Virus record (IMG/VR): IMGVR_UViG_3300045747_000694
Coordinates: 42,165 to 106,164 of that record
Reading direction: 5' to 3' (one strand)
Length of the DNA: 64,000 nt
DNA from: a virus
A program made the position numbers and the translations under genes. The notes under the pieces were generated by a model that had not been told where the DNA came from, searched no databases, and saw nothing but the letters and a program-made list of their open reading frames with translations. Position 1 is the stretch's first letter. Each line of letters opens with the position of its first letter. Positions 13,597 through 62,895 of the stretch are shown piece by piece.

Positions 13597-14080
13597 ACCA
13601 ACGCCATCCCCAACAGCACGTACCCCGTCATCCGTACCTCCTGGCTAAGGTTGTCTCTGCTCTCTCCTTATGCCTCCACGCACCCACCTTTGGAAGCCAC
13701 TCGCACAGTTGGTACGATGAAAGATGACTCCCAAACGTGCACGGTGCACGGTGTTTGCGCGACCCCATGGGTACCCCGTCAAGCAACGAATGTACAGGGC
13801 TGTCCTGCAAGTCCGGGCAATCAGGAAGAGTATGGAGATGAGCCGCCTCCCGGCGGCTACTCGAAGAGTCCGTTCGCGTTCTCATCCAGGAAGCGAGGTG
13901 TGACTTACACCTCTCCCAGATGGGAACTGAGCGGACTCTAGAGCTTGTCACCGTCAGTGCTACGAGCAGCGAAACTTCACTGCCATACTCTTATGCCCAA
14001 AGTGCGGCCGTACTTGCACCCACACCGACGCCACGATTCATGCTCCCCACTGAAGCTGCGGTGGAGTAGCGTCGAGGTAC

Positions 14081-14926
14081 GTGAGCACTTACTACGCCCT
14101 CCCAGGAACGACCAAGCGCGTTTCGAACTACGCTCTGCTCTTCCTGTGCTTGTTGATGACTGCGCTCTTCGGGGCCGTTGACCGAATGCTTGATGTCGCC
14201 TTCCACTACAACTTCACACCCACGCCGCTCTACCTGATCCCCATCTCGATTGCGGCGTGGTTCGGTGGTCTTCCTCTCGGCCTACTCGTTTCGGTGCCAG
14301 CTCTGTTGCTCGAGTCTTGGCTCAGTCTCAAGTCGATCAAGATCCACCATCCCAACTCAGCCATCATCACCGAGGCTCTCTCGCTTCTCATCGCTGCGGA
14401 GATGCTTGGAGCGGTGTTGATCGTTTCGAGGCTGCGGAGCTACGTTCGCAAGTACCATCACTTCGCTTCGGTGGACGAGCTCACCGAATGCCTCAATGCC
14501 AGGGCCTTCAGGCACGAGTGCGAGATCGCCATCGAGCGCCTGAAGCGCTCGAAGGACGCCCACCTCTCGGTCATGTACATCGACGTGGACGACTTCAAGA
14601 TCGTGAACGACGAGAAGGGCCACAAGCATGGGGATGCGGCACTCAAGACGCTTGGGGAAGCGCTGCGTACCTCGGTGCGCTTGGTGGATGTGGTTGGTAG
14701 AGTGGGAGGAGATGAGTTCGCCGTTCTCCTCCCTGATGCCGAAGAGGCCGACCTCCCACTCATCATCGGTCGCATCAAGGCTGCACTCGTGCAGCTGGAG
14801 TTCCCCACCACCATCAGCATCGGCTACGTGACCTACCCGCCCGGTGTTCCGAAAGACCTCGACGCAGTCTTCCACTTGGCCGACCAGCGCATGTACGCGG
14901 CCAAGAAGGCACGCAAGCAGAGGTAA
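14081..14926 (+). CDS. membrane-anchored GGDEF-domain diguanylate cyclase
   Basis: N-terminal hydrophobic helices. C-terminal GGDEF domain with an intact RVGGDEFAVLL motif. Hairpin terminator just downstream. Confidence 0.8.
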   Translation: MSTYYALPGTTKRVSNYALLFLCLLMTALFGAVDRMLDVAFHYNFTPTPLYLIPISIAAWFGGLPLGLLVSVPALLLESWLSLKSIKIHHPNSAIITEALSLLIAAEMLGAVLIVSRLRSYVRKYHHFASVDELTECLNARAFRHECEIAIERLKRSKDAHLSVMYIDVDDFKIVNDEKGHKHGDAALKTLGEALRTSVRLVDVVGRVGGDEFAVLLPDAEEADLPLIIGRIKAALVQLEFPTTISIGYVTYPPGVPKDLDAVFHLADQRMYAAKKARKQR

Positions 14927-14932
14927 GAAGAA

Positions 14933-14951
14933 GGGCCCAGACTTCGGGCCC
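14933..14951. terminator. hairpin gggcccagacttcgggccc between convergent genes (preceded by GAGGTAAGAAG)
   Basis: 7-bp GC stem. Minus-sense reading gives a UUCUUCUUACCUC tail after the stem. Confidence 0.5.
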
Positions 14952-14974
14952 TCCTCCAGCTGCTGTGCATGCTG

Positions 14975-15727
14975 CTACTGCGCGACGAACTTCAGCGGAG
15001 CCTGATACCGGACCAGAGGGCCCAGTGGCGTCGCCGGGTAGAACTTCATGTTCGCGACGGTGGCCATGTCCGTGGTGCTCGTGTAGGGCGTGCAGATGGC
15101 CACGCCAAGAGAACCGTCCGGCATGTCCGAACGCAGCATCATGCTCTTCACCCCAGAGCCGGAAGCGCTACCCAGCACGGGGTCTGCGTAGGGGTGCTCA
15201 ACGATGTACACGATCTCGTTGTTCTGCACGGGAGCCTCGGCACTGTTGTTGATGGTCGTCGACGCGTACGTGGACACCACGAACGAGTTCCCGGTGCAGT
15301 CGAGGTTGTCGAAGTAGATCCGAGCAGCGGGCATCAGCCCCGTCTTGATGATGCGCAGGGTGAGGTACCGCTTGGCCCCCAGCTGCTCCGAGATGATGGC
15401 CTCGCCCATCCCCGCCGGCCCGTAGAAGCCGATGATGTTGCCGATGACGACATCATCGTTCGACACGAGGTTCATGCCGATGCCCCCAGTCACAGCCGCG
15501 ACAGCCGCGACAGCCTTCGCCTGAACCGGCATCTCCACTGGAGCTACGAGGGCAACAGGAGCCTGCACCAGCGCACCGACGTTGGGGTTGCGGGTGAGGT
15601 CCTGCACCACCGGCGGAGGCACCACCGGCGGGGTCACGACGACAGGGTCTTCGCCTCCGTTGGGAGCGGCGCAGGCGAACAGCGTGAGGCAGAGAACCGC
15701 GACAAGAGTGCTGTTGTAGGTCTTCAT
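14975..15727 (-). CDS. secreted lipoprotein, unknown function
   Basis: MKTYNSTLVAVLCLTLFAC signal/lipobox. RBS aaggagggg upstream. Confidence 0.55.
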   Translation of the reverse strand: MKTYNSTLVAVLCLTLFACAAPNGGEDPVVVTPPVVPPPVVQDLTRNPNVGALVQAPVALVAPVEMPVQAKAVAAVAAVTGGIGMNLVSNDDVVIGNIIGFYGPAGMGEAIISEQLGAKRYLTLRIIKTGLMPAARIYFDNLDCTGNSFVVSTYASTTINNSAEAPVQNNEIVYIVEHPYADPVLGSASGSGVKSMMLRSDMPDGSLGVAICTPYTSTTDMATVANMKFYPATPLGPLVRYQAPLKFVAQ

Positions 15728-61864: not shown

Positions 61865-62107
61865 TAGGTCGCCCTCAGACGGGGGTCCGAAGGTACACGT
61901 TGAGTGTTATGGAGAGTAGAAGCGGTGGGCGAGAAGTGCGTGCGCCACGTAGTCCCCGATTCAGTGCCACGAGTCCACCGTCGGTCGGCTTGCAGTCCGA
62001 TGACGACGGTGAGGTTCGTTATACGCCCCACCCCTACCCCTGCAAAGAAAGACCTGCGGGATCGTGGGAGAGCTAAGGAATCCGGGACCTTCTGGCTCTT
62101 CGGCCCG

Positions 62108-62152
62108 GGCTCTACCCGACACGAGATAGACGCGTGTGTGCGGGTAGAGCCC
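62108..62152. terminator. 12-bp perfect-stem hairpin gggctctacccg...cgggtagagccc
   Basis: Lies downstream of the 62181 gene and upstream of nrdJ. Confidence 0.45.
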
Positions 62153-62180
62153 TTCTGCCGAACCTCTTGGAGCTTTTGCC

Positions 62181-62762
62181 CTACTGCTGGGACCACCCCA
62201 GCGCCTTGCGGTGGAGCGGCGAGTCATGCCGGTTCTTCGACATCTCCCGAATCGCCCTCACCACAGACTCCAGGCCCTGCTCCACATGCTGCACACCGAA
62301 CAAGACGGAGTCGATGCGGGAGGCGGGAATGCCGCTCTTCTGCTCGAGCTCCTTGACGAGGTTGCCGACCTGCCCAACCTTGCCCTTGGCCTGCACGCGA
62401 ATCAGGAAGTACCAGAGGATGACCTCGTCGCGTCGGGTCACGTACCAGTAGCCCGCCAGGTCCTTGTACTTCTCCGGCAGCATCTCTACCGGCACAGGGA
62501 CCTCGACGATGTCGCCGAGCCCCGCCGCGAGCAGCTTCGCCTCGTCGGGGTTCTTCGTGGTCTTGTACCGCTTCCGCATGTGGCGTTCGACGCGCTCCTC
62601 GAACACCGAGTTCACATCGAGGGACTCTCGAGCGACTGCCTGCTCGAGCCGCTTGGCGGTGCCCACCGACTTCGCGGTGAAGACTGCCATGGCGCACGAC
62701 TTCGTTACGGCATAGCCCCCCATCGCTACGGCCCCAAGGGCCAGAATCGGGAACATGTTCAC
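62181..62762 (-). CDS. hypothetical protein with N-terminal TM helix
   Basis: Complete ORF. Confidence 0.45.
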   Translation of the reverse strand: MNMFPILALGAVAMGGYAVTKSCAMAVFTAKSVGTAKRLEQAVARESLDVNSVFEERVERHMRKRYKTTKNPDEAKLLAAGLGDIVEVPVPVEMLPEKYKDLAGYWYVTRRDEVILWYFLIRVQAKGKVGQVGNLVKELEQKSGIPASRIDSVLFGVQHVEQGLESVVRAIREMSKNRHDSPLHRKALGWSQQ

Positions 62763-62895
62763 CTCCAGGTGATTGGGTTGGAAAGAGTTCCGATACGAGC
62801 TTCTACGCTCACAGCCTTATGCCGCTGAAGTTGTTGGAGTTGCCTGGGGCAGGGTGCTACCTTGGCTGGAAGCCCATCGGCCCTGAGGGAGGGGC

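Follow-up and report, generated by a model that had tools for sequence, protein, structure and literature searches.

A 64,000-nucleotide stretch of viral DNA (IMG/VR record IMGVR_UViG_3300045747_000694, positions 42,165 to 106,164; hereafter the window) contains a 9-mer, CCTTATGCC, that recurs in intergenic DNA ahead of minus-strand genes. Is this sequence a promoter and, if so, which protein reads it? An earlier note, made from the letters alone, proposed either a promoter element or a regulator-binding site, specific to this virus. The window comes from a large tailed phage, has a G+C content of 64% and a non-coding share of 9.5%, and carries its genes in long same-strand blocks. We find that the 9-mer in its minus-sense form, GGCATAAGG, makes up the -10-like part of an element with two boxes, which is very likely a promoter. 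Our reading as a whole, to which we assign a probability of roughly 0.55, is a bipartite promoter most likely read by a 285-amino-acid (aa) sigma factor of the phage's own.

Frequency and anatomy of the element

The expectation that the 9-mer is commoner than composition predicts is borne out in the 64-kb window, with seven exact copies against 0.21 expected from dinucleotide-preserving shuffles, none of which reached seven. Allowing one mismatch gives 19 copies (6.8 expected), and the looser core GGNATAAG occurs 11 times (1.28 expected). An unbiased k-mer count returns GGCATAAG as the top-enriched 8-mer of intergenic DNA, with seven of its ten copies non-coding.

The earlier note had correctly placed six exact plus-strand copies (13666, 18202, 19778, 36667, 58650 and 62815); the copies that match in eight of nine bases lie at 13989-13997, 15779-15787 and 17075-17083, each at most one base from where it had been put, and the variant suspected near 12888 is CCTTATCCC at 12890-12898. 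The orientation, described as always the same, is indeed constant for the intergenic copies, but an exact opposite copy lies within coding sequence 16554-17060 (-), probably by chance. The single orientation in the window follows from where its genes lie.

Two features had been overlooked, an upstream box and a class of variants with the cores GGGAGAAGG and GGGAGAAGA at 21904 and 22189. Written in the minus sense, the consensus is [G/T]CAA(a/t), an unconserved spacer and GG(C/G)A(T/G)AAG(G/A), with a gap of 16 nt after [G/T]CAA. The [G/T]CAA box of ten strong sites begins 20 nt ahead of the core's first G; about 5-7 nt past the core comes a pyrimidine-purine step, where transcription would be expected to start. 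Together with the two variants, these sites make up 12 good copies. They are preceded by stop codons or hairpins and followed by genes on the minus strand and by two apparent non-coding RNAs. The copies, with the doubtful ones, are as follows (sites are named in the text by the first position of the core).

12884-12918, minus strand: promoter copy, core GGGATAAGG (12890-12898), ahead of gene 12190-12837 and then a transfer-messenger RNA (tmRNA) gene; 52 nt to the start; a 14-bp hairpin (~12928-12961) just upstream
13660-13694, minus strand: promoter copy, core GGCATAAGG (13666-13674), 34 nt to ATG 13631 with an AGGAGG ribosome-binding site
13983-14017, minus strand: promoter copy, core GGCATAAGA (13989-13997), with no protein gene downstream and a structured predicted transcript of 284 nt
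15773-15807, minus strand: promoter copy, core GGCATAAGC (15779-15787), 51 nt to ATG 15727; upstream, a hairpin with the CTTCTTACCTCTC repeat (15813-15846)
17069-17103, minus strand: promoter copy, core GGCATAAGA (17075-17083), 14 nt to ATG 17060, the short leader containing a GGAGG ribosome-binding site; the hairpin repeat upstream (17103-17136)
18196-18230, minus strand: promoter copy, core GGCATAAGG (18202-18210), behind the TGA stop of the upstream gene and a hairpin
19772-19806, minus strand: promoter copy, GGCAAG-N15-GGCATAAGG (core 19778-19786), 47 nt to ATG 19730
21898-21932, minus strand: variant copy, GCAATTC-N13-GGGAGAAGG (core 21904-21912); boxes kept at L007:14068, spacer rewritten
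22183-22217, minus strand: variant copy, GCAAAAGC-N12-GGGAGAAGA (core 22189-22197), within the 3' end of gene 22155-23159, upstream of small gene 21988-22143; conserved counterpart at L007:13782
36661-36695, minus strand: promoter copy, core GGCATAAGG (36667-36675), the TAA of which is the stop codon of gene 36669-37112
58644-58678, minus strand: promoter copy, GTCAAG-N15-GGCATAAGG (core 58650-58658), 49 nt to ATG 58600 of a DNA-ligase-like gene
62809-62843, minus strand: promoter copy, GGCAAC-N15-GGCATAAGG (core 62815-62823), 58 nt to ATG 62756
62145-62179, minus strand: doubtful weak copy, GCAAAAGC-N12-GGCAGAAGG (core 62151-62159), score 17.0, below the highest shuffle maximum of 23.3
37166-37200, minus strand: probable non-member, GGCAGAAGG (37172-37180), upstream of gene 36669-37112
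16836-16844, plus strand: opposite-orientation exact copy within a coding sequence, without an upstream box; most likely chance

A weight matrix of the element scores 14 sites above threshold, every one of them on the minus strand, where shuffles predict 0.35; 12 of the 14 also served to build it, and only the other two are independent. Twelve of the hits are intergenic, and all share the direction of the downstream gene. Two sites were downgraded on inspection: 62151 is embedded in a perfectly conserved hairpin between a 193-aa gene and the ribonucleotide reductase gene, and 37172 is overlapped by an extended -10 motif of host type, TGTTAGTGT (37186-37194).

The distance from motif to start codon is 14-58 nt for starts with ribosome-binding sites, rising to ~270 nt at 36667. 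The range of ~45-55 nt proposed earlier fits the starts at 12837 (52 nt), 15727 (51), 19730 (47) and 58600 (49), but not those at 13631 (34), 17060 (14) and 62756 (58). The last had been taken as 62762, which is the GTG of the longest open reading frame; the ATG at 62756 has a ribosome-binding site. The motif had been said to sit against the ribosome-binding site at 17060 and 18199; at 18202 the adjoining ATG is out of frame. The gene behind the 18202 copy probably starts at GTG 18124, because the in-frame GTG at 18199 would precede the predicted transcription start. It had also gone unnoticed that the 36667 copy shares bases with the stop codon of the gene before it, and that long non-coding stretches follow both this copy and the one at 13989.

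A GC-rich hairpin ends immediately before the element at five or six sites, in some cases with a common CTTCTTACCTCTC tail. Canonical sigma-70 promoters are absent from the intergenic DNA of the 11-22.5 kb region, and the three found in the whole window, against 8.5 in shuffles, all lie within coding sequences. The view of the motif as a promoter with a -10-like CATAAG that is no ordinary sigma-70 box gains support from this absence and from the rigid, gene-directed and conserved two-box arrangement.

Conservation in related phages

A DNA search of deposited phages with the window gave no matches, and protein searches returned only remote metagenomic huge or large phages, none of them from Myxococcus. 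Cultured relatives were found only below 30% identity. The description of the phage as a myxophage is abandoned, as neither DNA nor protein matches a Myxococcus phage. The GGDEF cargo gene is uninformative as a clue to the host, its matches being at most 41% identical and scattered across many phyla. The close relatives, at ~90% protein identity, are a 198-kb IMG/VR contig (loci L001, L002 and L157) and an 18-kb metagenome contig (L007); relatives were read as loci of up to 20 kb. A wider clade is marked by a 479-aa protein encoded just past the right end of the window, which is kept at 38-49% identity in 20 viral contigs of 120-198 kb and 50-65% G+C, most of which carry the two-box element. 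The same protein weakly matches a 'structural protein' from Salmonella phage Arash.

In seven orthologous comparisons with the ~90% relatives, the core has the highest identity (95%), followed by the upstream box (79%), the spacer (56%) and the sequence beyond the box (48%). The orthologue of 62815 has a 20-nt insertion that supplies a new GGCAA at exactly the same distance, the promoter at the ligase site (58650) is conserved in a close relative where the leader has diverged, and at the variant sites the two boxes are preserved around a rewritten spacer. Ligase orthologues in four phages (L001, L161, L160 and L159) have gTCAAg and GG(C/G/T)ATAAG upstream at the same spacing, with unrelated spacers between.

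For the distant relatives, 32 sites were picked by the 7-base core alone. The upstream box is recovered in this panel as G/T at -20 (27 of 32), C at -19 (20), A at -18 (27) and A at -17 (30), and downstream there is A at +8 (23) and +9 (22), T at +13 (19) and G at +14 (27). Position +14 is seven bases past the last base of the hexamer nATAAG, and seven bases past the hexamer end is the canonical start of sigma-70-family holoenzymes. In the distant panel, 23 sites fit the strict pattern [GT]CAA-N16-GGNATAAG, against 0.18 expected from shuffles, and the box is offset by 20 nt in 23 sites, by 19 in 3 and by 21 in 1. Sites in the distant relatives lie on both strands, each directed at its downstream gene. 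Rather than being specific to this virus, as had been suggested, the element is common to a clade of 120-200 kb uncultivated phages.

A scan of the sequence collection with GGCAA-N16-GGCATAAGG-N3-T gave 26 matches, among which the known relative alone is real and the rest are chance. Copies of GGCATAAGT adjoining tRNA genes in the AT-rich relatives L005 and L010 lack the upstream box and are coincidental. A literature search for the consensus strings returned unrelated primer sequences only, and no published promoter consensus was found for this clade.

Comparison with known promoter classes

The element has the general build of a sigma-dependent bipartite promoter, that is, two boxes, an unconserved spacer of fixed length, an intergenic position and a direction set by the gene. 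It resembles the sigma-70 promoter (TTGACA-N17-TATAAT, with or without the extended -10 TG) in the ~17-bp distance between its boxes, in the A-T-A-A that occupies -11 to -8 and in a probable start 6-7 nt after the hexamer. The housekeeping sigma-70 promoter was nevertheless rejected, as the element has G for the near-invariant T at -7, GG at -14/-13 for TG at -15/-14 and GCAA for TTGACA at -35, with no consensus match in intergenic DNA. The same genomes hold true extended -10 motifs as a separate and rare class.

The geometry is identical to that of sigma-28/FliA promoters (TAAAGTTT-N11-GCCGATAA), with 19 nt from ..AA to ATAA in both and the expected register being the best for 7 of 12 sites. 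The E. coli fliL promoter, TCAAGA-N14-GCCGATAAG, can be set beside window site 58650, TCAAGA-N14-CGGCATAAG. However, the bases that define the -10 differ, GCCGA in FliA and GG(C/G)A in the window. A FliA matrix from 23 experimentally mapped E. coli sites (PMC4203485) puts the window sites in the top 0.3-10% of positions without recovering them, and a canonical FliA promoter (TAAA-N15-GCCGATAA) was rejected on sequence.

Sigma-54 (GG-N10-GC at -24/-12) was rejected on spacing by inspection of the aligned sites, where the downstream TTGT is shifted one base from the required register and has GT instead of GC; the conserved upstream box would also stay unexplained. A promoter for a T7-like single-subunit polymerase, in which ~20 bp should be conserved across the start site with no interruption, is excluded by the unconserved spacer, and Pfam and PHROG scans of the window found no single-subunit phage RNA polymerase.

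A candidate phage sigma factor

Within the window, no full-length sigma factor or RNA polymerase was found by Pfam or PHROGs, permissive thresholds included. In at least nine relatives, the ~90% relative among them, a syntenic open reading frame 5-7 kb past the 479-aa gene encodes a sigma-like protein, detected by local search with E. coli RpoD, FliA and RpoE sequences. Six of these nine have Pfam Sigma70_r3 above the curated threshold, and the protein of the close relative matches PHROG 351 'RNA polymerase sigma factor'. The family profile spans regions 2.2-4.2 and matches SigA at 4e-11 and RpoS at 5e-10 to 8e-10, with FliA matched less well. In a large protein collection the family comprises 96 clusters, many of which are labelled 'specialized sigma subunit' by JGI. 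The AlphaFold model of the closest sigma (P0001) has a mean pLDDT of 81, and sigma factors fill all of its top 50 structural matches, at low TM-scores of 0.2-0.3 that we attribute to domain arrangement. On our reading of the alignment, residues matching E. coli Q437, T440, H455 and E458, which we take to be the -12 and extended -10 contacts, appear to be replaced.

The contig of P0001 comes from run SRR35489129, which also holds the exact ligase protein of the window, and it agrees with the window in gene order and in its DNA distance to the relative. Because of this shared run, gene order and distance, the phage of the window very probably encodes the 285-aa sigma itself, ~9 kb past the right end of the window. 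The sigma of L166, which diverges most within the clade, is matched best by FliA in local comparison, and a comparison of sigma and promoter in L166 for co-variation has one site only.

A second sigma-like protein is encoded inside the window.

35511-35837, minus strand: 108-aa region-2-only sigma-like protein, found by family-profile match, in the operon that the 36667 promoter is predicted to drive

This protein is conserved in L002 and L007 and lacks the DNA-binding half. Region 2 is the part of a sigma factor that binds core polymerase, and the protein could be a decoy or competitor for it.

Host-type promoters and a proposed cascade

No GG.ATAAG site belongs to the sigma gene itself, which directly adjoins the gene before it in a long operon. 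TGnTAnnnT, an ordinary extended -10 motif, stands at the head of this operon in 12 of 14 relatives; it is placed back-to-back with a promoter of the GG.ATAAG class and sometimes lies just 6-9 nt ahead of the start codon. Three plus-strand motifs of this host type in the window are the following.

62855-62863, plus strand: host-type extended -10 motif TGCTACCTT, heading the large operon that leaves the window and holds the sigma gene in relatives; back-to-back with the 62815 promoter copy
13710-13718, plus strand: host-type extended -10 motif TGGTACGAT, directed at the GGDEF gene (14081-14926), facing the 13989 promoter and back-to-back with the 13666 copy
36429-36437, plus strand: host-type extended -10 motif TGCTATGCT, antisense in a conserved non-coding stretch and facing the 36667 promoter

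The extended -10 motif TGNTANNNT is depleted about three-fold in the window, with 6 copies (13710, 14695, 30432, 36429 and 62855 on the plus strand, 37186 on the minus strand) against 18.6 +/- 4.2 expected. Four of the six, 62855(+), 13710(+), 37186(-) and 36429(+), are at regulatory positions. The depletion suggests selection against stray host-type promoters.

The window ends within a 1153-aa gene (62894-64000, plus strand) that opens a ~10-kb operon of large proteins (L157:6330-17272), encoding the 1153-, 479- and 995-aa proteins and others, with the sigma gene last in relatives. The large proteins have no Pfam or PHROG match.

A mechanism can be built on what is established above, namely the enrichment, anatomy, rigid spacing and clade conservation of the motif, the existence and fold of the sigma, and the type of promoter that heads its operon. 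A holoenzyme with a non-housekeeping sigma-70-family factor would bind both boxes via region 4 and regions 2/3, the DNA would open at ATAAG, and transcription would start at a purine 6-7 nt past the core. The element would drive the minus-strand units of the window, which comprise small lineage-specific genes, the DNA-ligase-like gene, the operon of a vault-protein-like gene, two non-coding RNAs and probably the tmRNA. In the proposed cascade, host sigma would read a few TGnTAnnnT promoters, that of the sigma operon included, and the phage sigma made from it would in turn read the many GG.ATAAG promoters.

A parallel is Bacillus phage SPO1, in which host sigma A is followed by gp28 and then gp33/34, with middle promoters of the form AGGAGA-N17-18-TTTnTTT. 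The proposed cascade parallels the gp28 step, and we infer its transcription start, its pairing of sigma and promoter, and its temporal order. Both systems would have a phage sigma-70-family factor that redirects host core polymerase (recognition and timing are predicted on our side), and both have bipartite promoters with ~17-bp spacing and a consensus unlike that of the host, a sigma gene in a unit with a host-type promoter, and putative targets that include DNA metabolism genes. In contrast to SPO1, the clade has an unrelated consensus, GCAA-N16-GG.ATAAG, and its genomes are high-GC and uncultivated, with the sigma gene closing a ~10-kb operon of large proteins.

Sigma factors are often found instead of polymerases in huge and jumbo phages: jumbo phages with sigma factors and no RNA polymerase of their own are described as 'group 2' (PMC7824862), and huge phages have been found to encode sigma-70 copies (PMC7162821), with tmRNA genes also reported for huge phages. 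The phage of the window resembles these in that host polymerase is apparently reprogrammed by the phage's own sigma and a tmRNA gene is present. The two papers list proteins, and the panel contigs here are 120-200 kb.

Which factor reads the element

Several points count against the phage sigma as the reader. Promoter function is argued from anatomy and conservation alone, and the pairing of sigma and promoter comes from their co-occurrence in one lineage. The sigma gene lies outside the window and is tied to the phage by sample and synteny and not by overlapping sequence. One subclade (L165, L168-L172 and L174-L176) has the element, and three routes of search did not find the sigma family in it; conversely, a divergent sigma gene is present in L162, L163, L166 and L173, where the DNA examined shows no recognisable element. 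By profile the sigma is closest to SigA and RpoS, group 1/2 factors that normally read -10 boxes of the TGnTAnnnT type, and because of this resemblance the reverse assignment, in which the phage sigma reads the host-type motif, is possible. Finally, the target genes, small genes of the variable region and nucleotide metabolism, look like early genes, which a reader already present at infection would explain more easily. In a bolder variant of the phage-sigma reading, the sigma, encoded among possibly virion-associated large proteins, would be packaged and injected, and the element would mark the earliest promoters.

The early look of these genes and the subclade with the element and no detectable phage sigma favour a host factor, either an alternative sigma or the housekeeping holoenzyme redirected by a small phage protein, as MotA and AsiA redirect it to the middle promoters of T4. 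The phage sigma would then serve another class, for example late structural genes or the TGnTAnnnT sites, which would suit its similarity to SigA and RpoS, and the structural plus-strand block indeed has no promoter class visible inside the window. Yet the element is conserved in phages of 50%-65% GC that probably have different hosts; it matches neither the sigma-70 consensus nor the E. coli FliA matrix and, by inspection, does not fit the sigma-54 spacing; no MotA- or AsiA-like protein appears in Pfam and PHROG scans of the window; and the universal motif of host type carried by the sigma operon fits a host-then-phage order. On balance we regard a host reader as unlikely, if worth keeping in mind.

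The regulator-binding site that the earlier note offered as its alternative, a repressor or activator site near promoters that polymerase itself would not recognise, becomes less likely given the sigma-type geometry, and we now consider it improbable. The window does encode candidates, an XRE-like helix-turn-helix protein (~37.4-37.7 kb) and a response regulator. Operators of helix-turn-helix proteins are typically palindromes or direct repeats, however, whereas the element lacks symmetry and consists of two parts, separated by a spacer that is not conserved and a gap fixed at 16 nt; moreover, a pyrimidine-purine step is conserved at the expected start, and no other promoter-like signal stands alongside. 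A role in RNA, as a processing site or a translational operator of the 5' leader, is barely credible: the motif does lie between the upstream gene and the ribosome-binding site (near the latter in two cases), but it forms no consistent stem among copies, its distance to the start codon varies from 14 to ~270 nt, its partner box lies upstream over an unconserved spacer, and terminator-like hairpins separate the upstream gene from the element.

If the phage sigma does read the element, the GG.ATAAG -10 and the compact 285-aa sigma may represent a previously undescribed sigma-70-family specificity, which with the region-2 paralogue and the two facing pairs of host-type and phage-type promoters would form a self-contained, orthogonal switch of transcription; we put this forward tentatively, at somewhat less than even odds. 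Nearly all known -10 boxes have a flipped-out T at -7, where the element of this clade has G, with a GG extension in place of TG.

Significance

The analysis yields a predicted transcription map for an uncultivated group of large phages, with at least 12 units delimited in the window, including two candidate non-coding RNAs and possibly the tmRNA. It proposes a three-part regulatory logic of few host-type promoters, a phage sigma and many phage-type promoters, and the consensus can be used to annotate related metagenomic phages and to sort their genes by expression class without culture. If the pairing is true, the sigma and its promoter would be a compact pair without host cross-talk for synthetic biology, and a natural case of a sigma-70-family protein reading a -10 element without T at -7. 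Timing by phage sigma factors is already well known, and the element with its candidate sigma is probably a new example of it.

Other features of the window

Pfam and PHROG scans assign a collagen/S74 tail fibre, a head-decoration-like protein and SLT and GH108 lysins, and on the nucleic-acid side PolA, PNKP, a class II ribonucleotide reductase and a ligase-like protein. Other products are Cpn10, an Acb2/Tad1-like protein, a GGDEF protein and a response regulator.

The region of ~12000-20000 is packed with short units, each consisting of a promoter, one or two small unassigned genes and a hairpin; it looks like a variable cassette region, with the GGDEF gene there on the opposite strand. One of its products, the 168-aa protein of 16554-17060, has no homologue in IMG/VR. 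A complete tmRNA gene (11774-12142, minus strand; Rfam RF00023, 105 bits) with the tag peptide ANEPMFAQQLAAA lies directly downstream of gene 12190-12837 and may be co-transcribed with it from the GGGATAAGG promoter copy.

The two non-coding stretches have no family match in Rfam (36397-36666 and 13700-13983 searched). The first (36397-36666, minus strand; L002:5784-6050 and L007:1625-1900) runs for ~270 nt from the 36667 promoter, itself kept at L002:5775 and L007:1616, to the real start of the next gene (MKK...), which leads into the operon of the vault-protein-like gene. It has long stems and is far better conserved than other leaders at equal evolutionary distance, and with the 36429(+) motif directed into it, a sense/antisense RNA pair is possible. 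The second is the predicted transcript of the 13989 promoter (13700-13983, minus strand), which has no open reading frame and folds at -123.6 kcal/mol (z = -5.1 against shuffled controls). It contains a terminator-like hairpin and faces the 13710(+) motif, and could act as an antisense switch for the GGDEF side.

The GC-rich hairpin followed by CTTCTTACCTCTC (minus sense) is repeated at 15813-15846, 17103-17136, 21253-21286 and 14919-14937, lying between genes and immediately upstream of several promoter copies; it is likely a terminator without a T-run, of a kind that a standard terminator scan misses. The palindrome GGGTACCC occurs in intergenic DNA at 13769, 20089 and 20449, and also at 30571; it is enriched in intergenic DNA, where the k-mer count gives six of eight occurrences over both strands, that is, three of four physical sites. 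Upstream of the class II ribonucleotide reductase gene is a 316-nt intergenic region (61865-62180), in which a perfectly conserved hairpin with a 12-bp stem (~62105-62150) comes right after the weak 62151 site and could be a terminator or a regulatory leader.

The XRE-type helix-turn-helix protein (37359-37709, plus strand), read from the sequence (...MGVSRQQIWNIENA...), is encoded beside the divergent control region 37113-37216, a possible regulatory hub. The 881-aa vault-protein-like protein (30687-33332, minus strand) has the shoulder and repeat domains of the Major Vault Protein (Pfam 2.5e-27). Its homologues are found in at least 44 metagenomic phage contigs of 29-66% G+C, including huge phages of 462-735 kb, and in L003 a gene for a MoxR-like AAA ATPase lies upstream of the vault-protein-like gene.

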